Assembly: GCA_038213805.1 (NCBI GenBank) | Contig: JBBQSO010000099.1 | Coordinates: forward strand, 1 to 18,182 | DNA: 18,182 nucleotides | Source: Planctomycetota bacterium | Lineage (GTDB): Bacteria; Planctomycetota; UBA11346 | Reading direction: 5' to 3' | In this document: one piece after another, positions 327 through 16,097 of the stretch | How positions within the stretch are numbered: position 1 is the first letter of the stretch | Layout of the letters: the number at the start of each line of letters is the position of its first letter | Program-made: the position numbers and the translations under genes | The notes under the pieces: model-generated | The model's input: only the letters and a program-made list of their open reading frames with translations | Database searches by the model: none | What the model was told of the DNA's origin: nothing

Positions 327-878
327 ATGCACAGCCCTGACATCCATGATCTCGCCGTCGCCGCCTGCGCGGGCGATACCAATGCCTTTGATGCGTTGAT
401 CGGGCATCTGGGGCGCGATCTGCGCATCTTCGTCGCGTCGCGCGCGGTGAATCAGGAGCAGATGGAGGAGATCTGCCAGACCACGTGGGTGACGGCGTGG
501 GAGCGGCGGGCCACGTGGCGTCACGAGGCACCGTTCGACAGCTGGGTGCGGGGCATCGCGCGGAATCAGTTGCTGCAGGATCTGACGCGCCTTGCACGCG
601 AGCGGAAGCGGCATGGCAGCGATGAGATCGACCAGGTGTTGGCGAACGATGGGCTGGCCCAGCTCGATCAGGCCACGGACGTGCGCGCCGCGCGGCTGAC
701 CTCGTGTCTCGACCAGCTGTCGCCGCGGGCCAGGACGATGCTCCTTGCCCGCCATGGCGCGGGCGAATCCATGGCGAGCCTGGCGCGCCGCTTCAAGCAG
801 CCGGTTCCGACCTTGGCGACGGTGCTGTGGCGACTGCGCGCCAGCATCCGCCAGTGCGTGGAGGGCGTGACGCCATGA
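327..878 (+). CDS. ECF-type RNA polymerase sigma-70 factor (183 aa)
   Basis: Region 2 motifs (GDTNAFDALI..LRIFVASR..MEEICQTTWVTAW..FDSWVRGIARN) and region 4 (LTSCLDQLSPRARTMLLARHGAGESMASLARRF..TLATVLWRLRASIRQCV). ATG at 327 preferred over the track's TTG at 309. Stop overlaps the next ATG (ATGA, 875-878). Confidence 0.92.
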   Translation: MHSPDIHDLAVAACAGDTNAFDALIGHLGRDLRIFVASRAVNQEQMEEICQTTWVTAWERRATWRHEAPFDSWVRGIARNQLLQDLTRLARERKRHGSDEIDQVLANDGLAQLDQATDVRAARLTSCLDQLSPRARTMLLARHGAGESMASLARRFKQPVPTLATVLWRLRASIRQCVEGVTP

Positions 879-2662
879 CCACGCGCCTGGCTGAATTCTT
901 CGAACGCGCCGGCGATGGCGATCTCAACCCCGCGGAGGACGCCGAGCTGCGTGCGCTGCTTGCGGATGCTGATGGTCGCACCGCGGTGATCGCGCAGCGC
1001 CGTACTGCGTTGCTGCTGGCGGCCTGCTGGGATGAGCGCAGTGCGGGCACGATCGGGGCCCTGGCGCGGTCCGCGTCGACCGTGCAGCGGCCCAGCCGAA
1101 TACACCTGCGTATCCGCGCGCGTTCAGCGCGGCGGCGGCGGTTCGGCATCGACTGGAGCATGAGGCGCGTGCTGGTGGCGGCGGCCGCGCTGATCCTGGT
1201 GATCCTCGGTGGTCGCGCCTGGTGGTCGCAGCCCGGCGATCTGCCGCTGATCGCGGCCGGATCGGTCACGACCGGCGCGGGGGTGCAGCTCATCGCCGGT
1301 CAGGTGGTCCCGGCGGGCGCACGGGTAAGGAATCAGGCCGGTGCCGAGGCACGACTGCGCTGGCGCGATGGGACGCACCTCGACCTGGCGCCTGAGAGCA
1401 CGCTCGTCGTCGAGGTCGGCAAGCAGCTGCGTCTGGAACAGGGCGTCATCCACTGCGTGGTCGCGAAGCAGCCCGAAGCGCAACCGCTGCGCGTGCGCAC
1501 CCTGCAATCCGAGACCCGGGTGGTGGGCACTGAATTCACGGTGACGATCGACGCTGGGGTCACGCGGCTGGCGGTCTCGTCGGGGACGGTGCTCTTCACC
1601 GACCTGGCGAACCAGCATGTCACCACGGTGACCGTCGGCGGCGTCGCCAGCGCTGGCGATCAGGCGCTGCCGCCGGCCTTGGCGCGCGGCATCAATCTGC
1701 TGGTGACGGATACCAATGGCGGGGCGTGGCCGGCGGATGCGCGCGGTCTGCGCCAGCTGGACGCCATCGCCGCCGCCGGCTTCAGTTTCGTGCGCGTGGT
1801 CATTCCCGGGAAGCGTCCGAGCGCAGCCGAGGGTTTGGAGCGCGGCACGCTTGCAGCGCTGGACGCGCTGCTGGATGCCCTCGCTGCCCGCGGACTGGCC
1901 AGCATGGTCAGCCCGTATCCGCTTGAGGACACCGATCCCGCCACCGCGCGCCTGGATCAGCAGCGCGTCTGGCCGGCGTTGGCCGCGCATTTGGCGCGGC
2001 GATCCGCCGACCGGATGTTCTTCGAGCTGTCCAATGATCCGCGTCAGACCACCGCGGAACGGCGTGCGCAGGTGGTGTCGCTGGTCGCGGCCATCCGCAG
2101 TTCCGCACCAGCGCACACCCTGGTGATCGACACGCACATGGGTCTCAGCGGATCCGTCGAGGCGCTGGAAGCGGTCGTGCCCATGACTGACAGCGGCATC
2201 ATCTATGCCGTGCGCTTCTTCGAACCGGTGCTGTTCACGCATCAGGGGGGTGCCTGGATCGGCGAACCCTACGGCCAGGTGGCGTCGGTGCCGTACCCGA
2301 GCGATGCGCAGGCGGTGGTGGCGGCAGTGGCGCGGACGCCTGCGGCGCAGGCGGCGCTGACGCGGTATGGCGCCGAGCGCTGGACCGCGGCGCGGATCGA
2401 TGCGCTGCTGGCCGCCACCGCGGCCTGGGGCGAGCGCAACCATGCTTCCGTGCTGGTGACGAATTTCGCCGCGGTGGCCGCTGCTCCGGCAGATGCCAGA
2501 ACCGCCTGGATGCACGATGTGCGTACGGCGTGCGAAGGCCACCACCTGGGCTGGTCGGTGTGGCAGGACAGCGGCGTGTTCACGCTCTGGGCCGGGCCGA
2601 CCAGGGATGCGTTCGATCTCCAGACGCTGCAGGCGTTGGGCCTGCGCGCTGCTGGGCCATGA
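875..2662 (+). CDS. FecR-domain anti-sigma factor fused to a GH5-fold domain, predicted catalytically inactive (595 aa)
   Basis: ATGA coupling to the sigma gene. Short N-terminal helical region, Arg-rich stretch, one TM helix (VLVAAAALILVILGG), FecR motifs (ARLRWRDGTHLDLAPESTL..LRLEQGVIHCVVAKQ..PLRVRT..VVGTEFTV..TRLAVSSGTV), then GH5 landmarks (LARGINL, AGFSFVRVVIP, FFELSNDP, FEPVLFTHQGGAW, GWSVW). Confidence 0.88.
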   Translation: MTTRLAEFFERAGDGDLNPAEDAELRALLADADGRTAVIAQRRTALLLAACWDERSAGTIGALARSASTVQRPSRIHLRIRARSARRRRFGIDWSMRRVLVAAAALILVILGGRAWWSQPGDLPLIAAGSVTTGAGVQLIAGQVVPAGARVRNQAGAEARLRWRDGTHLDLAPESTLVVEVGKQLRLEQGVIHCVVAKQPEAQPLRVRTLQSETRVVGTEFTVTIDAGVTRLAVSSGTVLFTDLANQHVTTVTVGGVASAGDQALPPALARGINLLVTDTNGGAWPADARGLRQLDAIAAAGFSFVRVVIPGKRPSAAEGLERGTLAALDALLDALAARGLASMVSPYPLEDTDPATARLDQQRVWPALAAHLARRSADRMFFELSNDPRQTTAERRAQVVSLVAAIRSSAPAHTLVIDTHMGLSGSVEALEAVVPMTDSGIIYAVRFFEPVLFTHQGGAWIGEPYGQVASVPYPSDAQAVVAAVARTPAAQAALTRYGAERWTAARIDALLAATAAWGERNHASVLVTNFAAVAAAPADARTAWMHDVRTACEGHHLGWSVWQDSGVFTLWAGPTRDAFDLQTLQALGLRAAGP

Positions 2663-2694
2663 GACTTGAAACCACGAAAGTGAAGGAATCACCC

Positions 2695-5322
2695 ATGAAC
2701 ATCTCGCGTATTGCGACCGCCCTGCTGTCCCTGGCCATCGTCCTGGCCACGGTGTGCTGCGCTCTACCGGCGGCGGCTGGCGAATCGGTGACCGTCGACT
2801 GGGACGTGGTGCAGCGGGCGGTTGACGCCAAGGCGTATGGCGTCAACGGACCGAACATGTTCGATCCCAATGCCGCCAACAACGCCACCTACCTGGCGGG
2901 CTTGTCGGGGATCACGCAGAAACGTGGGTTCATCCGCCTGCACGGCTGGGGCATGGTCGAACGTTCCGACAGCAACAACCAATACTGGCTCAATGCCGAT
3001 GGCAGCTGGAATGCGGACAAGATCCGCAGCGCGCTGTCGGGCGCGGCGGGTGCCGGCCTGATCCCGTCGATCATGATCAACATCCCCAGCGGACCGGGAG
3101 GCGGAACCGACTATCAGGACGTCGATAGCTTCGTCCGGGCCGCCGCCAGCCTGGTGCAGATCGTCAACGTCGACAATCATTTCGGCGTCACCTATTGGGA
3201 ACTGCCCAACGAGCGCGAGGCGGGTTTCCAGTCACCGGGCCTGACCGCCGGGCAGGCGGCGACGCTGATCTCGGCCTGTTCCCGCGCGATGAAGGCCAAG
3301 GATCCGAGCATCAAGGTCGGCGGTCCGGCAACCGCGTGGATCAACGTCGATTACATAGCGAACGTGGTGGCGGGCTGCCTGGGCGATATCGACTTCGTCA
3401 GCTGCCACACCTATGGCGGCGATGGCAGCGCGTCGGATGCGGCGATCTATGATTCCGCCCAGGCCGTGCAGGGCGCGGTCGCCTCGTTGCGGTCCAGGCT
3501 TACCGCGATCAGCGGCGGAAAATACCTGCCGATCTACGTGGACGAGCATAATTTTGCCTGGCAGGGAACCGGTCGGATCCACACCAACAAGGAAGCGGTC
3601 TACGATGCGATCGTGCTGAGCGGCGTCATCGCGGGCGGTGGCGACGCGTCGATGTACTGGCACGATGCCGGTTCGTCGATGGGCCTGATGGACGAGGCCT
3701 TCAGGCCTTATTACACGGCCACTACCTTCACCATGTTCAGTGCCTGGTTCCAGGGTTCGCAGGTCAGGAGTTCGTCGAGCAACGCAGCGGCGGTCATCGC
3801 CTATGCGACCCGCAGCGACACCGCGAACGCCCTGTGCGTCGTCAACCGCAGCGCGGGGCAGCAGACGGTGACTATGGCGTATAACGGCTTCACGCCGACG
3901 ACCGTCGATCGCTACCAGGTCTCGTCGGCCGGTTTCTCGGGCCCGAACGCGATCGCTTGGCCGTCTATCGTCGGCAGTGGCCTGACCGTGCCCGAAAACT
4001 CGGTCACCTTCCTGATCGCCAGGCCGCCCCCCAGCGCGATCGCGCCGGTGATCACCGCACAGCCGGACAACGTGACCGTCGCGGTTGGACAGACGGCATC
4101 CTTTCGCGTGACCGCGACGGGCACGCCGGCACCAGGCTACCAGTGGCAGCGCAACGGCACTGACATCGCCGGCGCCACGACGACGACTTTTACGACTGCC
4201 TCGACCACGACGGCGGACCAGGGTGCGACCTTCCGCTGCGTGGTGGGCAACAGCGCTGGCAGCGTGACGTCGGCTGACGCGACGCTGACGGTGACCTCGG
4301 GCAGCGGCGGAGCCATCGCCATCAACTGCGGGGGCGGAGGCGTCGGTGCCTACATCGCGGATGCCTATGTCAGCGGCGGCACCACCACCACGAACTGGAC
4401 CGGCGCCGTCGATGTCAGCGCCGTGACCAGCCCCGCTCCGGCCACGATCTATCAGAGCGAACGCTATGGCGCGTCATTCACCTATACCATTCCCGGTCTG
4501 GCGGTGGGTGGTTCGTACACGGCACGGCTGCATTTCAGCGAGGACTGGCATACGGCCGCCGGCAAGCGCCTGCAGGACGTCTCGATCAATGGTGCGCGCG
4601 TGCTGAGCAGCTTCGACATCTTCGCCAGCGCCGGCGCGATGCACAAGGCGGTCATCCGGCAATTCACGGCCACTGCCGACGCCGCGGGCCGGATCGTGAT
4701 CGCGTTCACGGGTGTGCCCACCGATGTTGATGATGCGGCCAAGGTCGATGGCATCGAGATCGCGGTCAATGCCTGGACGAACCGCGACATCGGCGGTCCC
4801 GGTCTGGCGGGCTCGGTCGCCAGCGTCGACGACACCATCACCGTGACGGGTTCGGGTGTGGATATCTGGAATGCCAGCGACGGGTTCCAGTTCGTGGCGC
4901 AGCCGCTGACCGGCGATGGCACCATCGTGGCACGCGTGGTGTCCATGCAGAACACCAACGCGTGGGCGAAGGCCGGCGTGATGATCCGTGCCGGGACCAC
5001 TGCCGGCGCCGTGCACGCCTTCTGCTGCGTTACTGCGGGGAATGGCGTGGCGTTCCAGCGCCGCACGGTCGCCAACGCCGGTTCGTCGCACACCGCCGGA
5101 TCCCAGAGCGCCGCGCCGCGCTGGGTGAAGCTCGTCCGGCAGGGGGCGGTGCTCAGCGGTTATGAATCCGCGGACGGTACGACCTGGCGCCTGGTGGGCA
5201 CGACCACCATCAGCATGGCCAATCCCGTACAGATCGGTCTGGCGGTGACCAGCCACGACAACAGCCGGCTATGCATCGCGATGTTCGACCACGTGCTGGT
5301 GACGCCCAGCGGCAACGGCTGA
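2695..5322 (+). CDS. Secreted multidomain clan GH-A glycoside hydrolase (GH39-like) with Ig-like, malectin and C-terminal ConA-like (DUF1349-type) modules (875 aa)
   Basis: AAGGAA SD before ATG 2695; alternative ATG at 2659 overlaps the upstream stop. Signal peptide (..LPAAA/GES). YWELPNE, IKVGGPA, DIDFVSCHTY and PIYVDEHN catalytic-domain motifs. Ig module APVITAQP..YQWQRNG..FRCVVGNSAG (~4042-4293). Malectin AINCGG..YQSERYG..LHFSE..DVSING (~4318-4766). WTNRDIG..GSGVDIW..WAKAGVMIR module (~4774-5310). Confidence 0.85.
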   Translation: MNISRIATALLSLAIVLATVCCALPAAAGESVTVDWDVVQRAVDAKAYGVNGPNMFDPNAANNATYLAGLSGITQKRGFIRLHGWGMVERSDSNNQYWLNADGSWNADKIRSALSGAAGAGLIPSIMINIPSGPGGGTDYQDVDSFVRAAASLVQIVNVDNHFGVTYWELPNEREAGFQSPGLTAGQAATLISACSRAMKAKDPSIKVGGPATAWINVDYIANVVAGCLGDIDFVSCHTYGGDGSASDAAIYDSAQAVQGAVASLRSRLTAISGGKYLPIYVDEHNFAWQGTGRIHTNKEAVYDAIVLSGVIAGGGDASMYWHDAGSSMGLMDEAFRPYYTATTFTMFSAWFQGSQVRSSSSNAAAVIAYATRSDTANALCVVNRSAGQQTVTMAYNGFTPTTVDRYQVSSAGFSGPNAIAWPSIVGSGLTVPENSVTFLIARPPPSAIAPVITAQPDNVTVAVGQTASFRVTATGTPAPGYQWQRNGTDIAGATTTTFTTASTTTADQGATFRCVVGNSAGSVTSADATLTVTSGSGGAIAINCGGGGVGAYIADAYVSGGTTTTNWTGAVDVSAVTSPAPATIYQSERYGASFTYTIPGLAVGGSYTARLHFSEDWHTAAGKRLQDVSINGARVLSSFDIFASAGAMHKAVIRQFTATADAAGRIVIAFTGVPTDVDDAAKVDGIEIAVNAWTNRDIGGPGLAGSVASVDDTITVTGSGVDIWNASDGFQFVAQPLTGDGTIVARVVSMQNTNAWAKAGVMIRAGTTAGAVHAFCCVTAGNGVAFQRRTVANAGSSHTAGSQSAAPRWVKLVRQGAVLSGYESADGTTWRLVGTTTISMANPVQIGLAVTSHDNSRLCIAMFDHVLVTPSGNG

Positions 5323-5832: not shown

Positions 5833-6426
5833 CTACGGGTCGAACTTGCCCGTCAGCGAGCGCATCGCGCGCAGGATCTCATGGTCCAGGCCGGCCGCGG
5901 CGGCGAGCAAGGATTCGAGTGAACGGCTGTCGGCGGGCGCGTCGGTGGTCGCCTGCTGGTGGTCCTCGGCGATGCCGGGATAGCGCTCATTGGCGCGCTC
6001 GAGGACCGTATTGAGGCGGCGCAGCAGGGGGACGACCTGGCGCTGCTGGTCCTGAAGGGCCTTGTAGGCGAGCGCCAGCCGCACGCTGCTGGCGAGTTCT
6101 TCGCGGCTGCACGGTTTCAGTAGCAGGCGGAATACGTTGCCATCGTTGAGCGCGCGGACCACCGAGCCCGCGGTCGCCTGCCCGGTGAGCAGGATGGCGA
6201 TGACCTGGGGGTGCGAGACGCGCACCTCGGCGAGCAGATCGACGCCGCCGATGCCCGGCATGAGCTGGTCGGCGACCAGCAGGTCGATGGGTTCGCGGGC
6301 GATGATGTCGAGGGCCTCTTCACCGCTCGTCGCCCACAGCGCGCGATAGGGTTCGCGGTGCACGGTGCGCCGCAGGCCGTCGATAAGGAGGGCATCGTCG
6401 TCGACGAACAGCACGGTCGCGGCCAT
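5833..6426 (-). CDS. Response regulator: receiver domain plus helical C-terminal extension (197 aa)
   Basis: AGGAGGGG SD before ATG at 6426; the track's longer N-terminus is unlikely. VLFVDDD, LLVADQLMPG (phospho-Asp), LLTG and LLKP motifs. No HTH seen. Confidence 0.9.
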   Translation of the reverse strand: MAATVLFVDDDALLIDGLRRTVHREPYRALWATSGEEALDIIAREPIDLLVADQLMPGIGGVDLLAEVRVSHPQVIAILLTGQATAGSVVRALNDGNVFRLLLKPCSREELASSVRLALAYKALQDQQRQVVPLLRRLNTVLERANERYPGIAEDHQQATTDAPADSRSLESLLAAAAGLDHEILRAMRSLTGKFDP

Positions 6427-6516
6427 ATCCCCTCCTAGGACCCGGATCCGCCCGCCACGGGGGGGGGCAGGCAGGGCGGTCGATGTCACAGCCGACGCCC
6501 GGGGGCGTGCCGGGTC

Positions 6517-6545
6517 AGTGTACCCGTGAAGGGCGAGGGCCGCAA
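6517..6545 (-). promoter_or_regulatory. Putative sigma70 promoter TTGCGG-N17-TACACT for the 5833-6426 regulator
   Basis: On the minus strand, -35 = complement of 6540-6545 and -10 = complement of 6517-6522, with exactly 17-nt spacing, ~90 nt upstream of the start codon. Confidence 0.55.
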
Positions 6546-6601
6546 ATGCGCTGGGCGCCTGGGTCTCGCGGCTGGACAGGAGGGGGCCGCTCGTGGCGGA
6601 T

Positions 6602-6630
6602 TTGCATGGCGGCGCGGCCTGGGGTACCAT
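6602..6630 (+). promoter_or_regulatory. Putative sigma70 promoter TTGCAT-N17-TACCAT for the HDOD/HD regulator pair
   Basis: -35 at 6602-6607 and -10 at 6625-6630, 17-nt spacer, in the divergent intergenic region. Confidence 0.55.
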
Positions 6631-6787
6631 GAGGAAGCCGCGTGCCGGCAGAAGCTCGCGGGAATCGCGCGAGCGGCCAGCGCGCACCGGCGCGCGCTGG
6701 CCGGTGCGCAGCGTCCGCCCGGGCCGCGCGCAGCGGAGTGGGCCTGGCGGCTTTCATTCTTCCACCGCATGCTCCATGGAGTGGCTC

Positions 6788-7981
6788 ATGGTGACGGTCC
6801 GACATCGGCGCATCCTCTTTGTGGATGATGAGGTCCGCATCCTGGAGGGCATCCAGCGCATGCTGCGGCCGATGCGCGAGGAGTGGGACGTGCTGGTGCG
6901 CGACAGCGGCGTGAAGGCCCTGGACCTGCTCGCGAGCGAAAAGATCGACGTGGTGGTGTCGGACATGCGCATGCCCGGCATGGACGGCGCCGAACTGCTG
7001 CAGACGGTGATGCAGCGCCACCCCCAGGTCGTCCGCATCATCCTCTCGGGGCAGGCGGACCGCGACTCCCTGATGCGCTCGCTGGGCGCCACGCACCAGT
7101 ACCTCGCCAAGCCCTGCGACCCGGAACGGCTGCGCCAGGCGGTGGCTAAGGCCTGCGCGCTGCGCGACCTGCTGCACGATGAACGGCTGCAGCGCCTGGT
7201 CGCCAGCCTGGGGACGGTGCCCAGCCTGCCGACGCTGTACCAGCGCATCCACGAGGAACTGAGCAAGGACGAGTCCAGCGCCCGCGTGATCGGTGAGATC
7301 GTCGCGCAGGACATGGGCATGTCGGCGAAGCTGCTGCAGCTCACCAACAGCGCGCGCTTCGGGGTGAGCCGCCAGGTGAACTCCGCGGTGGACGCGGTGG
7401 GCATCATCGGTCTTGGCACGGTCAAGTCGCTGGTGCTCGGCGCGCACGCCTTCACCACCCTGGCCGGGGCCACCTCCGGCGGCGTGGCGACCGACCAGCT
7501 CTGGCAGCGCGCGCTGCAGGTCGCCACCCTGGCGCGCGCCATCGCGACGACCCTGCGCCTGGCCGCGCCGGCCGTGGACATGGCCTACACCGCCGGCCTG
7601 CTGCAGGACTGCGGCATGCTGCTGCTCGCGGTCAACCGCAGTACGGAATACGCGGCCGCGCTGGGCGACGCCACGCACCCCGACATCCCCGCGGCCGAGT
7701 GCGCGCACTTCAGCGCTGATCACGCCGCGGTGGGCGCCTACCTGCTCGGGCTGTGGGGACTGCCCGAGCCCATCGTCGAGGCGGTGGCATTCCACCATCG
7801 CCCGCTGGACGCGCCGATCACGGTGGTCAACCCGCTGGTGGTGGTGCACGTGGCCGGCGCGCTGATCGATGAGCCCGCCGGCGGACGCGCCGCCGTGCGC
7901 CTAGACCCCGGGATCGTCGAGCGCTTCAATCTCGCGGGCCACCTCGATACCTGGCGCCGCGCGCGCACCCAGGGGGGCTGA
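6788..7981 (+). CDS. Response regulator with HDOD output domain (397 aa)
   Basis: GGAG SD before ATG 6788 (alternative ATG 6776). REC: ILFVDDE, VVSDMRMPGMDG, LSG, LAKP. HDOD: VPSLPTLY..IVAQDMGMSAKLLQLTNSARFG..AVGIIG..AYTAGLLQDCG..DHAAVGAYLLGLWGLPEPIVEAVAFHH. Confidence 0.92.
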   Translation: MVTVRHRRILFVDDEVRILEGIQRMLRPMREEWDVLVRDSGVKALDLLASEKIDVVVSDMRMPGMDGAELLQTVMQRHPQVVRIILSGQADRDSLMRSLGATHQYLAKPCDPERLRQAVAKACALRDLLHDERLQRLVASLGTVPSLPTLYQRIHEELSKDESSARVIGEIVAQDMGMSAKLLQLTNSARFGVSRQVNSAVDAVGIIGLGTVKSLVLGAHAFTTLAGATSGGVATDQLWQRALQVATLARAIATTLRLAAPAVDMAYTAGLLQDCGMLLLAVNRSTEYAAALGDATHPDIPAAECAHFSADHAAVGAYLLGLWGLPEPIVEAVAFHHRPLDAPITVVNPLVVVHVAGALIDEPAGGRAAVRLDPGIVERFNLAGHLDTWRRARTQGG

Positions 7982-7984
7982 GCG

Positions 7985-9106
7985 ATGCCTGAACGCGTCC
8001 TGTGCGTCGATGACGACCCCAGCATCCTCGCGGGCTTCCAGCGCAATTTGCGCAAGCGCTTCGAGCTCGAGATCGCGGTCGGTGGCGAGGCCGCCATCGC
8101 CGCCTTGGAGAAGGGTCCTTACGCCGTGGTGGTCTCCGACATGCGCATGCCGGGCATGGACGGCATCCGCCTGCTGGCCACGGTCAAGGAGCGCTGGCCG
8201 GAGACCGTGCGCGTGATGCTGACCGGAGAGAGCGACATCAAGGCGACCATCACCGCGGTGAACGCCGGCAACCTGTTCCGCTTCCTCACCAAACCGTGCA
8301 CGCCCGACGAGCTGGCCGTCACCATCGAGGCGGCGGTCGCCCAGCACCGTCTGATCGTGGCCGAGCGCGAACTGCTCGAGAAGACCCTGTCGGGCAGCGT
8401 CAAGGTGCTCACCGAGGTGCTGTCGATCGTCAGCCCGCGCGCCTTCGGCCGCGCGCTGCGCGCCAAGCGTTATGCGCGCCACCTTGCCGAGCGCCTGGGC
8501 CTGCGCGCGCGCTGGCAGGTCGAGCTCGCGACCATGCTCTCGCAGATCGGCTGCATCACGCTGCCCGCCGAGGTGCTGGACCGCCTGGTGGCGAACCAGC
8601 CGCTGGTCGGTGCGGAGCAGGAACTCGCGGATGGCCGCCACCTGGTCGCGCGCAATCTCATCGCGCACATCCCGCGCCTGGAGGCGATCGCGCGCATGAT
8701 CGAGCTGCAGGGGGTGATGGGGCGGGCCACTTGGCCAGAGGATCCGTGCATCCTCGGCGCGCAGGTGGTGTACGTCGCCCTCGAGGCGGACACCCTGATC
8801 GCCCAGGGCATCGTACCCAGTGTGGCCCTCGGCCAGCTCGGCCCGCGCCTGGGCAGCCGTTTCGCCAGGATCCTGGAGGCCTTCGCCAGCTACGATTTCG
8901 GCAATGCCGGCCAGGCGGTGCGCGCGATCTTCTCGAAGGATCTGATGCTGGGCATGATCCTTGACGAGGACGTGCGCACCAAGACCGGCCTGTTGCTGGT
9001 CAGCAAGGGGCAGGAGGCCACTCAGGCGGTCATCGAGCGCCTGCGCAACTACGCGAAGCAGATCGGCATCGTCGAGCCCTTCCGCGTCCTGGTGTCGTCG
9101 CCCTGA
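7985..9106 (+). CDS. Response regulator with degenerate HD/HD-GYP-like (RpfG-like) domain (373 aa)
   Basis: REC: VLCVDDD, VVSDMRMPGMDG, LTG, LTKP. Linker ERELLEKTLSGSVKVL. HD-like region with LATMLSQIG where LHDIG is expected, and no GYP motif. C-terminal LMLGMILDEDVRTKTGLLLVSKGQE module. Starts 3 nt after the HDOD gene. Confidence 0.88.
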   Translation: MPERVLCVDDDPSILAGFQRNLRKRFELEIAVGGEAAIAALEKGPYAVVVSDMRMPGMDGIRLLATVKERWPETVRVMLTGESDIKATITAVNAGNLFRFLTKPCTPDELAVTIEAAVAQHRLIVAERELLEKTLSGSVKVLTEVLSIVSPRAFGRALRAKRYARHLAERLGLRARWQVELATMLSQIGCITLPAEVLDRLVANQPLVGAEQELADGRHLVARNLIAHIPRLEAIARMIELQGVMGRATWPEDPCILGAQVVYVALEADTLIAQGIVPSVALGQLGPRLGSRFARILEAFASYDFGNAGQAVRAIFSKDLMLGMILDEDVRTKTGLLLVSKGQEATQAVIERLRNYAKQIGIVEPFRVLVSSP

Positions 9107-9151: not shown

Positions 9152-11893
9152 TCAGCGTTCCTGGGCCTGGACCAGCGGCAGGGTGACGATGAAGGTCGTG
9201 CCGACGCCCTCGGCGGTCTCGAAGGCGATGGTGCCGCGATGCCGCTGGACGACGATGGTGTGGCAGATGTAGAGCCCCTGCCCGGTGCCCTTGCCGACGG
9301 GCTTGGTGGTGAAGAAGGGATCGAAGATCCTGGCCCGCGCCGCCGCGGGGATGCCGGCCCCGTCGTCCTGGAAGCGCAGTTCGACCGCCTCGCCCAGCCG
9401 CCTGGTGGAAATGGTGATCAGCCCCTTGGAGCCATCGCCGCGCGCCGCGCCGATGGCGTGGGCGGCGTTGACCAGCAGGTTGAGGAAGACCTGGTTCAGT
9501 TCGCCGATGAAGCAGGAAACCGCCGGCAGCGCGGGATCGAAAGCGGTGCGCACCTCGGCCACGTATTTGTACTCGTTGCGCGCCACGGTCAGCGTGGTCT
9601 CGATGGCGTGGTTGAGGTCGGCCGGCTGGCACCCGTCCTGACCTGGGTGCGAGAACTCCTTCATTGCCCGGATGATGCCCGCGACGCGCGCGACGCCTTC
9701 GCTGGACTGCTCGATCGCGCGCGGGATCTCTGCGCACAGGTACGGCAGGTCGGCCTTGGCCCAGGCCGCGGCGGCCTGAGCAGCCGCGTCGGGGTCGTGC
9801 GTCTGGCCAGCGCCAGCGAGCAGGGCGCCCTGCTGCAGGCGCAGGGCGGCGTCCAGGTCGGCGAACGATTCGCGCAGGAAGCGCAGGTTGTCGCCGATGA
9901 ACTGGATGGGGGTGTTGATCTCGTGTGCGACGCCCGCAGCGAGCTGACCGATCGATTCGAGCTTCTGGCCGTGGTTGTGCTGGGCCTCGAGGTGCTTGCG
10001 CGCGGTGGTCTCGATGCCGAGCAGAAGGATCTCCGGCTCGCTCTCCTCCAGCCCGGTATCGGCGGTGTTGGCGAGGATGGTGAGGGAGAGGAAACCGCCC
10101 CGGCCGGAGGTGTGCTCATAGCGCACGTCCACCAGCTCCGCCTGGTCCCTGGCCATGCGGCAGGCGGCGATCGCCGCCATGATCGCTGCGTCGGAGGCGG
10201 CGAGACCGCTGGCCGCGAGCGGCATCCCCACGGCGGTGACCGCGGGGATGCCGAAGGTGCGTTCGGCGGCCTCGTTCCAGCGCGCGATGGTGTTGTCAGG
10301 GCGCAGGCCGATGAGCACGGCCGAGATGCTTGAGAGCAGCAGTTCCGCCTCGGCGTGGGCCTTGCGCAGGTCGCGCTCGGTCGCGCGCCGCAGCCCGATG
10401 TCGCGGACCAGCAGCAACGAGGCGGCCTGGCCGACGTGCTGGGTCGGGGTGGTCATGACCTCGACGTGGATGGTGGTGCCGTCGCTGCGCCGCCACTCCT
10501 GCTCGGGCAGGGTGCCGGCCGCCTCGGACGGCGCGGCGGTCGTCGCGGACGCCGCCGCGGCGGGGCGCGCGCCGGCGGTGAAGTCCTCCGCGCGGCGGCC
10601 CGCCGCAAATTCCGGCTCAGTCGTGCCGAGCAGCCGGTGGCCCGCGGGATTGGCGTAGACGAAGTGGTTCGCGCTCTGGATGAAGATGGCGAGCGGTGAG
10701 AGTTCGATCAGCAGCCGGTAGCGCTGCTCGCTGAGCATCACCCGGATCTGGGCCTCGCGCGCGTCGGTCACATCATTGAGGATGCCGATGTGGTTGGTGA
10801 CGGCGCCGGCGGCATCGCGGATCGGGCTGAGGGAAAGTTCGTTCCAGAACTCGCTGCCGTCCTTGCGCCGGTTGCGCAGCACCGCTGTGCATGGGTTTCC
10901 CGCCCTCAGCGCGGCGCGGATCCGGGCGAGATCCGGCTGGTCGCGGTCGCCGCCCTGCAGGAAGCGGCAATTCCTGCCCAGCATCTCGGCCGGGGCATAC
11001 CCGGTGATGCGCTTGGCGGCAGGGTTCGCGAAGATGATCGGGTTGTCGGCCTGGCGCGGGTCGGTGATGAGCACGCCGTTGCCCGCTGCCGCGATGGCGC
11101 GCTGGAGCAGGTGCAGCTCCTCGAGCATCCGCTTGCGCCGGCCGATGTCGCGGATGATGAGCTGCCATTCGACGCGCCCGGCGGACTCCATCCGGGAGAA
11201 GATGAGTTCGACGTCCAGGCGCCGCCCGTTCGCGTCCTGCGCCCAGGTCTCAAGCGCAGGCGAGGTCCGGACCCCGGCGCCATCCGGGTCAGTAGGGAGC
11301 AGGCGGTCGATATCCGGCAGGAAGCGCGCCACCGGGATGCCCGCCGCCAGCGGGCGCACCAGCCCCAGCAGGCGCAGTCCGGCCTCGTTGATCAGCTCTA
11401 GCCGCCCACTGGCGCTGATCAGAATGGCATCCGGTGAGTGCGAGAAGGCCGCTTCGAAGCGCAACGTGGCGATCTGCGCCTGGCGGGCGAGGCGATGCTC
11501 GGCCACCACCCGCCGCACGGCGGGCACCAGCCGCGCGAGGCGGTCCTTGAGCACGACGTCGGCGGCGCCGCCGCGCAGCGTGCGCACCGCGACTTCCTCA
11601 TCGAGGGAGCCGGTGAGTACGATCAGCGGGATGTCCACGCCCCGCTCCTTGAGCAGGGTCATGGCGACCAGCGCGTCCATGTCCGGCAGGAAATGGTCGG
11701 CGATGACCACGTCGAAGTCCGCGGCGAGGTGGTCCAGGAATTGCTCGCGGGTGCGCGTCGAGACCATGTCGAACGCCAGACCTGAGTCCACGAGGTGCTG
11801 GCGCAGGAGCACCTCATCGTCGGCGCGGTCCTCTACCAGCAGGATGCGCAGCGCCACATCCGCTGATCGTGGTGGAGGCGGGGGTCCGGGCAT
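9152..11893 (-). CDS. Soluble hybrid histidine kinase REC-PAS-LOV-PAS-PAS-HisKA-HATPase (913 aa)
   Basis: N-terminal REC (ILLVED, VIADHFLPD, LTG, LK). Four PAS-type repeats, the second with the LOV signature DNPIIFAN..GRNCRFLQG..RKDG..FWNEL. H-box [13 protein letters not shown]-box LNQVFLNLLVNA, G1 DDGAGI, F-box FDPFFTTK, G2 GTGQGL. No TM segment. Confidence 0.95.
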   Translation of the reverse strand: MPGPPPPPRSADVALRILLVEDRADDEVLLRQHLVDSGLAFDMVSTRTREQFLDHLAADFDVVIADHFLPDMDALVAMTLLKERGVDIPLIVLTGSLDEEVAVRTLRGGAADVVLKDRLARLVPAVRRVVAEHRLARQAQIATLRFEAAFSHSPDAILISASGRLELINEAGLRLLGLVRPLAAGIPVARFLPDIDRLLPTDPDGAGVRTSPALETWAQDANGRRLDVELIFSRMESAGRVEWQLIIRDIGRRKRMLEELHLLQRAIAAAGNGVLITDPRQADNPIIFANPAAKRITGYAPAEMLGRNCRFLQGGDRDQPDLARIRAALRAGNPCTAVLRNRRKDGSEFWNELSLSPIRDAAGAVTNHIGILNDVTDAREAQIRVMLSEQRYRLLIELSPLAIFIQSANHFVYANPAGHRLLGTTEPEFAAGRRAEDFTAGARPAAAASATTAAPSEAAGTLPEQEWRRSDGTTIHVEVMTTPTQHVGQAASLLLVRDIGLRRATERDLRKAHAEAELLLSSISAVLIGLRPDNTIARWNEAAERTFGIPAVTAVGMPLAASGLAASDAAIMAAIAACRMARDQAELVDVRYEHTSGRGGFLSLTILANTADTGLEESEPEILLLGIETTARKHLEAQHNHGQKLESIGQLAAGVAHEINTPIQFIGDNLRFLRESFADLDAALRLQQGALLAGAGQTHDPDAAAQAAAAWAKADLPYLCAEIPRAIEQSSEGVARVAGIIRAMKEFSHPGQDGCQPADLNHAIETTLTVARNEYKYVAEVRTAFDPALPAVSCFIGELNQVFLNLLVNAAHAIGAARGDGSKGLITISTRRLGEAVELRFQDDGAGIPAAARARIFDPFFTTKPVGKGTGQGLYICHTIVVQRHRGTIAFETAEGVGTTFIVTLPLVQAQER

Positions 11894-12014: not shown

Positions 12015-12043
12015 TTGACTCGCGCGGCTGACGAGGGGAAGCT
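12015..12043 (+). promoter_or_regulatory. Possible sigma70 promoter TTGACT-N17-GAAGCT for the barrel/PBP/kinase operon
   Basis: Near-consensus -35 (12015-12020), weak -10 (12038-12043), ~75 nt before the likely start. Confidence 0.35.
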
Positions 12044-12119
12044 TCAGGCTGGGCATCATCTGGGAAAGCGCGCCTGTTTCGACGCCCGCCCACCACGTTC
12101 CTCGGCAATGGGAGCCATG

Positions 12120-13496
12120 ATGCTCGAACCCCGGTGTCCCAAGGTCTGCGCGCGGCATCATGGGCCGGGTGGACATGCGCAGCACGGGGTGCCGCGGCCC
12201 AGCGGCGGTGCGCAGGACCGCGCCACAACGCGTGGACGGCCGCGCCGATTTCAGGTCGCAACGGGCGCGCTGCTCGCCTTTGGCGCCGCGGTTCCGGCCT
12301 GCGCCGTCGACCTCGGCATCGACCTGCATGGCTTCGCGAGCCAGGGCTACCTCATCACCACGGGCAACAACTACCTCGGCCCGACCCTGCAGGACGGCTC
12401 CTTTGAATTCAATGAGGTCGGGCTCAACGTCGTCGCCACCCCGGTCGACCGGCTGCGCGTGGGCGCCCAGGTGGTATCGCTCGACGCCGGAGATTTCGGC
12501 AACAACCAGGTGGAGATCGACTGGGCGTACGGCGACTACCAGCTTGATCAGCGGCTCGGCTTCAAGTTAGGGCGCTTCAAGATCCCGCTCGGCCTGGCCA
12601 ACGACACGCGCGATCTCGATTTGACGCGGACCCAGGTGTTCCTGCCCCAGGCCGTCTATCCCGTGCCGCTGCGGGACTTCTACATCGCGGTCAACGGCGT
12701 CGGCATCTACGGGACGGCCCCGATGGGCGGTCTCGGGACCCTGGATTACACGGCATACATCGGGGGCCAGAACATCACCTCGCAGAGCGCGACCGCCCGG
12801 TACTTCACCAGCCTGGGTGCAGGCGACACCTTCAGCTTCATCCATGTGAGCAGCATCGAGGGCGGCGCCCTGACCTGGAACACCCCGGCCGATGGGCTGC
12901 GCCTGCGCGCCTCGCTCTACCATGCCTACCGCCTGAACGTGCTCGGACACACGCTTGGCGCGGCCACCTCCGCGGCCGGCGTGTTCTCCGACAACGACAT
13001 CCACGCGCAGCTTCACGACTTCTGGAGCGGGATCCTCTCGGCGGAGTACCAGTGGAAGGACCTCACCCTCGCCGGGGAGTACCTGCGCAACTACTCGCGC
13101 AACGATGTGGTGGTGACCTCCCACCCGTTCATCAACGCGCCTGCCGCCGGCGGACCACCGGGATCGACGGTGCGGGTCGACCTGCCCGTGACCACAACCC
13201 GCAGGATCAGCTACCTGCGCAATGAGGGCATGTACCTCAGCGCCGGCTACCGCTTCCTCGAACGCTTCGAAGCCAGCGTGGGGCGCGAGATCTACTTCGA
13301 TGACACGCAGGCGCGCGGCGCGTCCTTCTTCCGCTCCTGGGATCTGTCCTTGCGCTGGGACATCCTCGACCACTGGCTGGCGAAGGCGGAATGGCAGCAC
13401 GTCGACGGCACCGCCTTCGCGTCGCGCCAGGACAATCCCCAGGGGCTCAAGGACTCCATGGATGTCCTGTCCCTCAAGACCACCTTCGATTTCTGA
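12120..13496 (+). CDS. Putative outer-membrane beta-barrel (porin-like) protein (~458 aa; start uncertain)
   Basis: GGGAG 5 nt before ATG 12120; in-frame ATGs also at 12108 and 12117. Signal-like RRFQVATGALLAFGAAVPACA/VD. Alternating beta-strand patterns IDLHGFASQGY, VEIDWAYGDYQ, FKLGRFKIPLG, WLAKAEWQHVDG. C-terminal Phe (LSLKTTFDF), typical of BAM substrates. Confidence 0.8.
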   Translation: MLEPRCPKVCARHHGPGGHAQHGVPRPSGGAQDRATTRGRPRRFQVATGALLAFGAAVPACAVDLGIDLHGFASQGYLITTGNNYLGPTLQDGSFEFNEVGLNVVATPVDRLRVGAQVVSLDAGDFGNNQVEIDWAYGDYQLDQRLGFKLGRFKIPLGLANDTRDLDLTRTQVFLPQAVYPVPLRDFYIAVNGVGIYGTAPMGGLGTLDYTAYIGGQNITSQSATARYFTSLGAGDTFSFIHVSSIEGGALTWNTPADGLRLRASLYHAYRLNVLGHTLGAATSAAGVFSDNDIHAQLHDFWSGILSAEYQWKDLTLAGEYLRNYSRNDVVVTSHPFINAPAAGGPPGSTVRVDLPVTTTRRISYLRNEGMYLSAGYRFLERFEASVGREIYFDDTQARGASFFRSWDLSLRWDILDHWLAKAEWQHVDGTAFASRQDNPQGLKDSMDVLSLKTTFDF

Positions 13497-13960
13497 TGGA
13501 CCAGCCCACCCCCATCCCGTCCATGCGCAGCGGGAGCCACCGCATAAATGCCACGCTGCGCGCGTCCGTGCTCGCCTGGCTCGTGCTGCTTGCGCCGACT
13601 GCAGGCGCCGAGGAGTTCCTGATCGTCAATCCCGGCGTCACCGGTGCCGGCCTGCAAGCGCGGGCGCTGCGCGACATCTTCCTCGGCAAGCGCGTCAACT
13701 GGGATGATGGCCAGCGCATCATCATCTTCATGACCAGGGAGGGTCCCAGCCGGGACGTGCTCCTGAAACGCCTCGGTCGCACCTCCGCGCAATTCGTCTC
13801 GGGTTGGAAGCGACTGGTGTTCACCGGCAGCGGTACCCTGCCGCAGGTTGTCGAAGGCGATGCCGCGCTGCAGGCCGCGGTGGCCCGGACACCGGGGGCG
13901 GTGGGCTTCGTGGTGGCGGCCCAGGCGGGCGACGGGGTCACGGGGATCGCGCTGCCATGA
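13496..13960 (+). CDS. Small exported periplasmic-binding-protein-like protein (PstS/PBP2-like fragment, 154 aa)
   Basis: TGATG overlap with the barrel gene. Signal peptide (..VLLAPTAGA/EE). LIVNP..LRDIFLGKRVNWDDG..WKRLVFTGSG..VARTPGAVGFV matches the short family often annotated as 'phosphate ABC transporter substrate-binding protein'. Confidence 0.82.
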   Translation: MDQPTPIPSMRSGSHRINATLRASVLAWLVLLAPTAGAEEFLIVNPGVTGAGLQARALRDIFLGKRVNWDDGQRIIIFMTREGPSRDVLLKRLGRTSAQFVSGWKRLVFTGSGTLPQVVEGDAALQAAVARTPGAVGFVVAAQAGDGVTGIALP

Positions 13961-14015
13961 ACGCGCCACGTCGACCTGTGGCGGTTTCGGCGGGCCCGGG
14001 CACAGGAGGGCGGCC

Positions 14016-16097
14016 ATGCGCATCGTGACGCAGATCTGGATCAGCTTCATCATCCTGCTGTGCGGCTATGCCGCGACCGTCGTCATCAACGACACCCTGT
14101 CGCGCAAGGGCGAGGCGTTTCTGCAGCACGCGCAGGCCGATGTCCTGCCCGCGATGATCGCCGCCCAGGAGGCCAGCACCGCCTTCAAGCAGCTTTTCCA
14201 GGCGAACCAGGACGCGGTGGTCTTCGGCGACGCCACCTCGCTGGAGCGCGCGGCGCCGCTGTTGCGCCAACTCGACCGCGATCTTGAGCGCATCGCCGCG
14301 TCCACGTCCCTGGGCGCGGTCTGGAGCACCACCGCCGCCGGCTGCCGCACGGCGGTCGCCGACTTCGCGCACGATGCCGAACCCACCTACCGGGCCCTGG
14401 CGCATGGTGACCCGGATGCGGCCGTGCAGGCCCAGGCGGCGCGGCTGCAGCAGCGCTATGACGGGATCTCCGCCGCGCTCGACCAGCTCACCGCCGGCCT
14501 GAAGGGTGCGCTCGCCGCATCCATGACCGAGCGGACCGTGACCGGCACGCGCGAACGCATGATCAGCGAACTGGTCCTGACCGTCGTCGTCCTCGCGGCC
14601 TTCGGGATCATCATCACCATCACCATGGGCTGGTCGAAGCGCCTCACCGCGCTGATCGACGCGAGCCACCGCATGAGCGCCGGCGACTACGATACGGCGA
14701 TCGTGGTCTCGGGCCGCGATGAGGTGAGCCTGCTGGCGGACGGCTTCTCGCAGATGCGGGAATCGATCCGCAAGCGCAACCGCGAGCTGCAGGAGTTCAA
14801 TGGGCGCCTTGAGAGCGAGGTCAGCGAGCGCACCGGCGAGCTCAAGGCGAAGAACAATGATCTGCTGACCCAGATGGCCGAGCGCCAGCGCGTCGAGCAC
14901 TCGCTGCGCCTGCTCGAGGTGGCGGTGGGGCAGATCGCCGAAGGGGTGGTGATCTCCGCGCCTGAGTTGGCCGCGTCGCGACCTCCTGACTACGCCAATG
15001 CGGGCTTCCGCTCGCTCTTCGCCCTGTCCCCGGAAGACGCGCTCGCAGGTGGGCTCGCCACGCTGTTCGCGGGGCACGTGCTGCCGCCAGAGCTGGAGGA
15101 GGCCTGCGCCATGGCCAGGGCCGGGCAGTCACGGACGATCGAGACGGCGCTGGTCCTGGCCGACCAGCGCGAGTGCGTCATCGAGTGGCACGTCGCTCCT
15201 ATCCGTGACGGCGCCGGCCGGATCACCAACCTGGTCTCGATCATGCGCGATCTGACTGAGCGCAAAGCCCAGGACGCGCAGCGCCAGCAGGGCGCGAAGC
15301 TCGAATCGATCGGCCTGCTCGCCGCGGGGGTCGCGCACGAGATCAACACCCCCATCCAGTTCATCGGTGACAACCTGCGCTTTCTCGGGGACGCCTTCGG
15401 CGACCTGGTGCGGGTCATGGCCGCCAAACGGAGCGTGGTCGAGGCGTGCCGGGCGGCCGCGAGCCACCCGGAACTGGTGGAGGCGGTGGACGCAGTCGCG
15501 CGCAGCGCCGATTTGGAATACCTCCGTGGCGAGATCCCCAAGGGCGTCGGCCAGGCCCTGGAGGGGGTCAACCGGGTCGCGGAGATCGTCCGGGCCATGA
15601 AGGAGTTCTCGCACCCCGACCAGCAGGAGATGGCGCCTGCCGACATCGCCAAGGCGATCACCACCACGCTGATCGTCGCGCGCACCGAGTACAAGTACGT
15701 GGCGGACGTGGTCACGGACTTCGACCCGGACCTGCCCCTGGTGCCCTGCCTGGTCGGCGAGTTCAACCAGGTGATCCTCAACCTTGTGGTGAACGCGGCG
15801 CACGCCATCGCTGACGCCGTCGGCACCAGCAACGCGCGCGGCACCATCACGATTTCCGCCAAGCGCAACGGCGGCAACGTGGAGGTGCGCGTCGGCGACA
15901 CCGGCACCGGCATCCCGCCGGCGGCGCGCGCCCACATCTTCGCGCCGTTCTTCACCACCAAGCCGGTCGGCAAGGGCACCGGGCAGGGCCTTTCCCACGC
16001 CCACACGGTGGTGACGAAGAAGCACGGCGGCACCATCACCTTCGAGACCCAGGTCGGGAAGGGAACGACCTTCATCATCGGGCTGCCGATGGCCTGA
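14016..16097 (+). CDS. Membrane histidine kinase TM-helical periplasmic sensor-TM-HAMP-PAS-HisKA-HATPase (693 aa)
   Basis: AGGAGG SD before ATG 14016. Two TM helices ([37 protein letters not shown]). HAMP ([30 protein letters not shown]), PAS ([26 protein letters not shown]), H-box AHEINTP, and N/G1/F/G2 boxes. Confidence 0.95.

Follow-up and report, generated by a model that had tools for sequence, protein, structure and literature searches.

The window analysed here, an 18,182-nucleotide stretch of a Planctomycetota-like metagenome-assembled genome (MAG; GenBank assembly GCA_038213805.1, contig JBBQSO010000099.1), carries on its reverse strand, at positions 9152-11893, an uninterrupted frame of 913 codons whose translation is a multi-sensor histidine kinase of 913 amino acids. 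The second sensor domain of this kinase is, judged by its residues and predicted fold, a bona fide LOV domain in which the adduct-forming cysteine and the flavin-binding residues are intact, and in which leucine occupies the position of the active-site glutamine (Gln) of strand Iβ. We consider it likely that this is a working flavin-binding domain of the natural Gln-less (LOV-ΔQ) class, set in a soluble histidine kinase with several inputs, and the protein is probably a working, slow-cycling blue-light kinase. The class was described, together with a mechanistic rationale, in 2022, and leucine is its commonest natural form; about 350 natural LOV-ΔQ receptors, predominantly with Leu and Ile, are given in the sections of that article used here (Dietler et al., 2022; PMC9098866; this and the other articles cited are drawn on in part). 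A sequence-only reading of the same DNA, which had called natural Gln-less LOV domains a reported minority, is confirmed in what it observed and proves largely right in its interpretation.

A LOV domain with leucine at the glutamine site

Translation places the motif GRNCRFLQG, with Cys309, and both flavin-binding asparagines exactly where the sequence-only reading had put them (Table 1), in a LOV core that comprises residues 271-376 (positions 10766-11083). The polar residues Arg310, Gln313, Asn341 and Asn351, which we take to be flavin ligands, are all kept, and their columns are 95-100% conserved in 114 related LOV domains (see below). When the PDB was searched with phmmer, 135 distinct sequences matched at E <= 1e-5, the best being a Pseudomonas short LOV protein (7r5n, E = 2.1e-37). 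The proposed replacement of the Iβ Gln by Leu372 is borne out by these alignments: it faces the Gln of FIGVQ or YIGIQ in the four PDB alignments inspected, and in an alignment with a plant phototropin LOV2 domain, gapless over 100 columns, Leu372 is paired with Gln, Ala293 with the Phe of SDSF, Arg342 with the Tyr of NYTKSG and His368 with the Phe of YFIGVQ. The offsets of -16 and +63 from the Cys match the numbering of C450, F434 and Q513 in AsLOV2.

An AF2 model of the domain, made from an eight-sequence alignment (pLDDT 87.4), is matched by Foldseek to solved LOV photoreceptors with a TMq of 0.91 and a root-mean-square deviation of 1.1-1.6 Å, the N- and C-terminal helices included; A'α and Jα-like helices flank the core. 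Among the marks of LOV domains, the fold, the motif GXNCRFLQ with its Cys and the polar ligand residues were found, and the canonical Iβ Gln was not. As for the LOV-ΔQ class, defined in section 9 of Dietler et al. (PMC9098866), the conserved LOV residues are present, Gln is absent and its substitute is neither Pro nor a bulky aromatic or charged residue.

The closest solved structures are those of Pseudomonas short LOV proteins (PF5-LOV, 7r5n; SBW25-LOV, 7yx0; PpSB1-LOV and PpSB2-LOV), which are 45-52% identical to the window domain (52% in the case of PF5-LOV), with TMq values of 0.88-0.91, and have the same A'α and Jα helical extensions. However, they are stand-alone proteins and carry Gln, Phe and Tyr at the three positions at which the window domain deviates. 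The LOV histidine kinase of Brucella abortus (6ph2, 6ph3, 6ph4 and 6pps; matched chains of 266-482 amino acids, E ~1e-24, TMq 0.87-0.89) likewise has a LOV domain followed by PAS and histidine kinase domains. To our knowledge it has no N-terminal receiver (REC) domain and only one intervening PAS domain, and its kinase core is of a different type from that of the window kinase.

Leucine at the Gln site is less unusual than the sequence-only reading implied. Among 114 LOV domains with the Cys and both Asn residues, taken from the best 120 proteins of a word-indexed search, the site holds Gln in 90, Leu in 12 (one of them the orthologue described below), Ser in six, Ile in four, and His and Val in one each. 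A further 113 such domains, from 74 proteins among the 132 new ones in the best 150 of an exhaustive representative search (3230 proteins at E <= 1e-30), hold Gln in 71, Leu in 23, Ala and Met in four each, Ile in three, Thr and Ser in two each, and Pro, His, Phe and Asn in one each; both samples were ranked by similarity to a Leu-bearing query and may overstate Leu somewhat. With 12 of 114 and 23 of 113 relatives carrying it, great rarity of Leu at this site is ruled out. Nor did the Gln vanish once. On a FastTree tree of 207 LOV domains (126 columns, local supports only), 25 changes between Gln and non-Gln states are needed, and leaving out the Gln column raises this to 28. Well-supported branches force at least seven of them, which rules out a single origin; Gln loss is therefore recurrent. 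The earlier description of these domains as a minority class stands, and what it overstated is their rarity, Leu being the commonest natural substitute.

The window domain and its orthologue group with two Leu-type LOV domains of larger hybrid kinases (P0097 and P0108) at a local support of 89, whether the Gln column is included or not, and a six-member Gln-less clade around the window domain is seen only when that column is included. Gln loss in this lineage probably predates the genus. The only other Cys-bearing LOV domain found in the genome has Val at the Gln site (GRNCRFLQG ... FVGVVSDVS) and lies in a protein of 1647 amino acids with the order CHASE / LOV / PAS / PAS / HisKA / HATPase / REC / REC / Hpt (G000:C12, L030:1013-5956, reverse strand). 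Neither of the LOV domains found in this 90%-complete genome, therefore, has the active-site Gln. The same Cys and Val form was seen in the congener G003 (L022). In four other congeners (G005, G007, G009 and G006; loci L024, L025, L027 and L028) large proteins were noticed with Cys-less LOV-like domains, in which the motif reads GRNSRFLEG, GRNGRFLEG or GRNPRFLYG and the Iβ site has kept Gln or has His.

A search of ten congeneric genomes (62-89% complete) gave one full-length orthologue, in G010, 82% identical over the kinase. Compared with it, the LOV domain has a ratio of non-synonymous to synonymous substitution (dN/dS) of 0.18, against 0.175 for the ATPase domain, 0.30 for the DHp region, 0.37 for PAS-A, 0.51 for PAS-C, and 0.60 for both PAS-D and REC. 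The LOV domain is the most constrained sensor domain of the protein and, with the ATPase, one of its two most constrained parts. The two homologue searches, pooled, gave 205 non-identical related LOV domains with Cys and both Asn. Conservation reaches 80% or more in 38 of their columns, and the window domain deviates in only two of these; the median for the set is likewise two. A LOV domain in decay is ruled out by the low dN/dS and by this median-level departure.

The pocket deviates at a further site that the sequence-only reading overlooked. Ala293 occupies a position that in AsLOV2 (F434) is listed among the inward-facing residues around the flavin mononucleotide (PMC11151830), and it is common to the window domain and its orthologue. 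The column is Phe in 198 of the 205 related LOV domains (~97%) and Ala in none. A pattern scan of a collection with one genome per species nevertheless picked up Ala within the same motif at 14 loci, which are spread over many phyla and include one with the orthologue's sequence (a count that has no denominator from the same collection), so that Ala293 is not unique to this lineage. At the Gln site these loci have Gln in eight cases, Leu in three, and Thr, Met and Phe in one each; the six without Gln are too few and too non-independent for a claim of coupling between the two sites. One of the 14, the Verrucomicrobiota-labelled L043, combines Ala with NRRKDG and with Thr at the Gln site; considered as an orthologue, it was rejected, being 55% identical over the LOV domain only, in a frame of 1369 amino acids. 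As regards the effect of changes at these positions in AsLOV2, F434M populates the light state incompletely and recovers about twice as fast, with a lower activation energy; the midpoint potential goes up by 20 mV in F434M and by 26 mV in Q513M (PMC11151830).

The reading NRRKDG in place of NYRKDG, also pointed out earlier, is correct: the column is Tyr in 98 and Arg in five of the 114 relatives, and Arg in five of the pooled 205. From the alternation of residues along the strand, the side chain of Arg342 should face the outer surface of the β-sheet; as a general statement, the hydrophobic β-sheet surface of LOV domains docks flanking helices or a dimer partner (PMC8184817). His368 (10790-10792, reverse strand) stands at a site that is Phe in 70, Tyr in 36 and His in five of the 114.

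Expected signalling and the explanations weighed

The behaviour expected of the window protein can be gauged from engineered receptors with Leu at the same Iβ position. In YF1, likewise a LOV histidine kinase, the Q123L variant binds flavin and gives the 390-nm adduct, with recovery slowed 10-fold; it reacts to lower light doses and switches from kinase to phosphatase activity at about half the amplitude; NmPAL Q347L stays light-responsive, and AsLOV2 Q513L has a blue-shifted spectrum and recovers ~22-fold more slowly, with light-state structural changes that are near-identical (PMC9098866). The sequence-only reading had held that this Gln couples flavin N5 protonation to output. That overstates its part, since YF1, PAL and AsLOV2 all retain flavin, adduct and signalling when their Gln is replaced by Leu (PMC9098866), and Gln is therefore no longer held essential. 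These variants are, however, laboratory point mutants of otherwise canonical domains, whereas the Leu of the window protein occurs naturally, is conserved and stands alongside Ala293 and Arg342. Among natural receptors, the tested example, the LOV-ΔQ-GGDEF-EAL protein of Mesorhizobium loti, shares with it the conserved LOV residues and the adduct Cys in the absence of Gln; it differs in having Met at the Gln site and a diguanylate cyclase output, whereas the window protein has Leu, a histidine kinase, additional REC and PAS domains, and Ala at the Cα Phe position. A natural Met-type LOV-ΔQ-GGDEF protein is regulated by blue light (PMC9098866). A receiver ahead of the LOV domain, by which phosphorylation and blue light are integrated, is also found in REC-LOV-GGDEF cyclases such as LaRldC (bioRxiv 10.64898/2026.02.07.704614), although these have a diguanylate cyclase output, in contrast to the kinase output and the three further PAS domains around LOV in the window protein.

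Transferred by homology from the variants of PMC9098866, the mechanism would run as follows. Blue light would drive formation of an adduct between Cys309 and flavin C4a, with protonation of N5. With the inert Leu372 in place of Gln, transient water would carry the signal to the β-sheet and the Jα-like linker, as the authors of that article propose for the engineered Gln-to-Leu variants; from there the signal would travel by way of PAS-C, PAS-D and the DHp helices and alter the autophosphorylation balance at His657. If the protein behaves like the same variants, one would expect a blue-shifted dark spectrum, dark recovery ~10-20x slower and, as a result, higher sensitivity to dim light, with a signalling amplitude that is reduced but real. 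Phosphorylation of the REC domain at Asp66 and ligands of the other PAS domains would modulate the same output. The analysis establishes the sequence, fold and conservation of the domain and the selection that acts on it; flavin binding and the photocycle, the sense in which the kinase is regulated and its partner regulators are matters that we infer.

Several observations weigh against a working blue-light kinase. Phe is nearly universal where the window domain has Ala293, which, alone or together with Leu372, could weaken the packing of the chromophore; the full-length orthologue was found in only one of the ten congeneric genomes, although their completeness of 62-89% means that absence from the others is not thereby shown; the whole kinase is 82% identical to that orthologue, against 90-97% for the neighbouring genes; its HisKA scores (17.3 and 20.4 bits) lie below the Pfam cut-off of 26.9; photolyase (PF00875) and phytochrome PHY (PF00360) were not found in the MAG, which at 90.3% completeness does not show that they are absent; and the probable source and the second sample mentioned below come from a single study, the latter in the form of contigs, not raw reads. 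The loss of chromophore binding or of productive photochemistry, which would leave a LOV-derived PAS domain with a purely structural or dimerising function, is suggested by the addition of Ala293 and Arg342 to the missing Gln, by the want of Ala at the Phe site in all 205 sampled relatives, and by YF1, in which some Gln substitutions abolish function, Q123R losing the flavin and Q123H the photocycle (PMC9098866). Against this, the LOV domain is under the strongest constraint of all sensor domains in the protein, every polar flavin ligand is kept, its departure from conserved columns is that of the family median, Leu specifically is a substitute that supports function (PMC9098866), and Ala at the Phe site occurs in 14 species genomes in an otherwise intact motif, eight of them with Gln; we consider such a loss quite unlikely. 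In a metagenome-assembled genome of 180 contigs one might suspect that the domain is in truth a canonical Gln one and that its Leu codon arose through an error of sequencing or assembly. Yet CTC differs at two positions from either Gln codon (CAA, CAG), the orthologue in a different genome has both CTC and the Ala293 codon of the window domain, and contigs from a second sample show no difference over 10500-10790 and 10789-11400, so an assembly error, which the sequence-only reading had allowed for, is ruled out and an artefact of any kind is extremely improbable. The same comparison answers its question whether orthologues also carry Leu: the one found does.

A further rival is a flavin-binding sensor of redox state or oxygen that works mainly by dark chemistry, in which Leu372 and Ala293 tune the midpoint potential and not the photocycle. 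Met at the two corresponding sites of AsLOV2 raises the potential, by 26 mV in Q513M and 20 mV in F434M (PMC11151830), LOV receptors have been suggested to descend from redox-active flavoproteins (PMC9098866), the run labels are those of soil and sediment metagenomes, and the MAG gave no match to a photolyase or phytochrome family. However, both species encode the adduct Cys by the same codon, the motif GRNCRFLQG is whole, and every Gln-to-Leu variant tested in the portions of PMC9098866 used here retains its light photocycle. The genome also carries two BLUF genes, above cut-off at 103.5 and 94.1 bits, in frames of 192 and 208 amino acids (G000:C86:20227-20502 and G000:C144:352-624, both on the reverse strand), which show an investment in blue-light sensing and therefore make such sensing plausible for the organism. 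Light and redox sensing are moreover not mutually exclusive. We hold a mainly redox-sensing domain to be unlikely; as to the 'redox-tuned' kinase of the sequence-only reading, the computation neither supports nor excludes it. With some scepticism, one may also entertain that Leu372, Ala293, Arg342 and His368 together form a conserved re-shaping of pocket and outer sheet, under strong purifying selection in two species, and hence possibly a LOV subtype with distinct behaviour. Were this true, the adduct might persist for an extremely long time and serve to integrate dim light in soil or sediment, the flavin potential might be shifted so that one domain responds to light and redox state alike, or a different flavin might be preferred. 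Ala, NRRKDG and a non-Gln residue recur together in the unrelated L043, and, given Val at the Gln site of its only other Cys-bearing LOV domain, the lineage might on this reading have given up Gln-based LOV signalling entirely.

For the working Gln-less blue-light kinase that we prefer, the conserved combination of Ala293, Arg342 and Leu372, and the lack of Gln in both LOV domains of the genome, add modest interest, and current understanding is not overturned. In the literature searched, the sole tested natural Gln-less LOV receptor is the Met-type cyclase; with a natural and conserved Leu-type LOV kinase, the water-relay model could conveniently be put to a second test, in the commonest natural form and in the output class of YF1. 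Since Ala at the Cα Phe is present as well, the domain offers a natural background for the joint role of pocket packing and the Gln site in adduct lifetime and flavin potential, both of which matter for the tuning of optogenetic tools. A planctomycete-like bacterium of soil or sediment is thereby suggested to use a single kinase to integrate light with phosphorylation and with the inputs of further PAS domains.

Architecture of the kinase and its genomic neighbourhood

The coordinates of the domains, of the diagnostic residues and of the adjoining receiver genes are collected in Table 1.

Table 1. Features of the LOV kinase gene and of the neighbouring receiver genes, in window coordinates.
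Feature	Position	Strand	Evidence or remark
Whole kinase gene	9152..11893	-	REC / PAS-A / LOV / PAS-C / PAS-D / DHp / HATPase_c; ORF (open reading frame) list, Pfam, 82%-identical full-length orthologue G010:C441
REC (N-terminal receiver), residues 17-124	11522..11845	-	Pfam Response_reg 42.7 bits (cut-off 30.2)
PAS-A, residues ~154-250	11144..11434	-	Pfam PAS_9 33.4 bits (cut-off 27), PAS_8 29.0 (cut-off 21.8), in fragment 11123-11500
LOV domain, residues 262-380	10754..11110	-	Pfam PAS_9 131.7 bits; PDB phmmer; AF2 model; Foldseek; dN/dS 0.18
Ala293 (GCC) at the conserved Cα Phe	11015..11017	-	equals AsLOV2 F434 by offset Cys-16
Cys309 (TGC), adduct-forming Cys	10967..10969	-	in GRNCRFLQG (residues 306-314); identical codon in orthologue
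Arg342 (CGG) in NRRKDG	10868..10870	-	Tyr site of relatives; orthologue Arg through synonymous CGA
Asn341 and Asn351, flavin-binding Asn, intact	10871-10873 and 10841-10843	-	LRNRRKDG from residue 339; FWNEL from residue 349
Leu372 (CTC) at the Iβ active-site Gln position	10778..10780	-	HIGILNDVT from residue 368; equals AsLOV2 Q513 by offset Cys+63
PAS-C, residues ~391-499	10397..10723	-	Pfam PAS_8 30.9 bits (cut-off 21.8), PAS 28.7 (cut-off 22.6), in fragment 10361-10741
PAS-D, residues ~526-628	10010..10318	-	Pfam PAS 21.4 bits, under cut-off 22.6; AF2 model and Foldseek; adjoins kinase core
DHp / H-box, residues 649-679	9857..9949	-	His657 (9923-9925) in GVAHEINTP; sub-threshold HisKA
HATPase_c, residues 799-908	9170..9499	-	Pfam 82.3 bits (cut-off 26.4); dN/dS 0.175
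REC with extension	5833-6687	-	longest ORF
REC-HDOD	6593-7981	+	longest ORF
REC + HD_5	7985-9106	+	97% identical in orthologous locus

The three PAS domains besides LOV were found by Pfam scans in which the intervening pieces of the protein were taken separately. PAS-A and PAS-C pass their cut-offs, and PAS-D, modelled with AF2 from an alignment with the orthologue and paralogues (pLDDT 83.7), finds its best Foldseek PAS matches in 3lyx and FixL (8js5), with TMq 0.67-0.77; the architecture is therefore read as REC / PAS-A / LOV / PAS-C / PAS-D / DHp / ATPase, and the REC, three PAS domains and kinase recognised by the sequence-only reading are all recovered. An alternative gene call for the same protein (P0006 in the protein collection) starts 12 codons downstream and gives 901 amino acids. 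In the receiver, Glu21/Asp22, Asp66 (11696-11698), Thr94 and Lys116 were located by eye and are presumably the acidic pocket, phospho-acceptor and associated residues of the REC motif. At the other end, NCBIfam kinase models span residues 638-907, every score being under its family cut-off, and stretches in the HATPase_c domain that begin at residues 805, 843, 857 and 869 were likewise picked out by eye, and we take them to be the N, G1, F and G2 boxes. By its motifs the kinase core appears intact. The module of PAS-D, DHp and ATPase belongs to a paralogous kinase family in the same genome, with identities of 67% at G000:C25:23138-24397 and 47% at G000:C1:4765-6012, and the neighbouring HAMP-PAS kinase (13848-16097, forward strand) is 59% identical to the LOV kinase over the kinase core only.

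The MAG, 90.3% complete, comprises 5.5 Mb on 180 contigs. Gene order around the kinase is kept on the contig of the orthologue, with identities of 90% for the reverse-strand REC protein, 90% for REC-HDOD, 97% for REC-HD_5, 82% for the LOV kinase, which is convergent with REC-HD_5, 90% for an ORF of 493 amino acids and 90% for the HAMP-PAS kinase. Three paralogous receivers (5833-6687, 6593-7981 and 7985-9106) thus adjoin two kinases. Because the longest ORFs of the first two share positions 6593-6687, one or both of the true starts probably lie inside them. The HD_5 domain of the third, inspected by eye, has SQIG at the place where HD-GYP enzymes carry HDIG, and shows no GYP. A role of this protein as a light-controlled cyclic di-GMP phosphodiesterase is accordingly not supported, and its HD-type domain is, going by these residues, probably a non-catalytic output domain; with the HD dyad apparently lacking, no cyclic di-GMP output is claimed for the system.

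The ORF of 493 amino acids (12015-13496, forward strand) had no Pfam or NCBIfam match. Its 90% identity in the orthologous locus compares with 84% for an overlapping reverse-strand ORF, and a protein-atlas feature search points, as a lead only, to porin-like outer-membrane proteins. Farther upstream in the window, and unrelated to the signalling cluster, are a FecR-domain protein (704-2662, forward strand) and, after it, a protein of 930 amino acids with matches to glycosyl hydrolase 39, Ig-like, malectin and DUF1349 families (2530-5322, forward strand).

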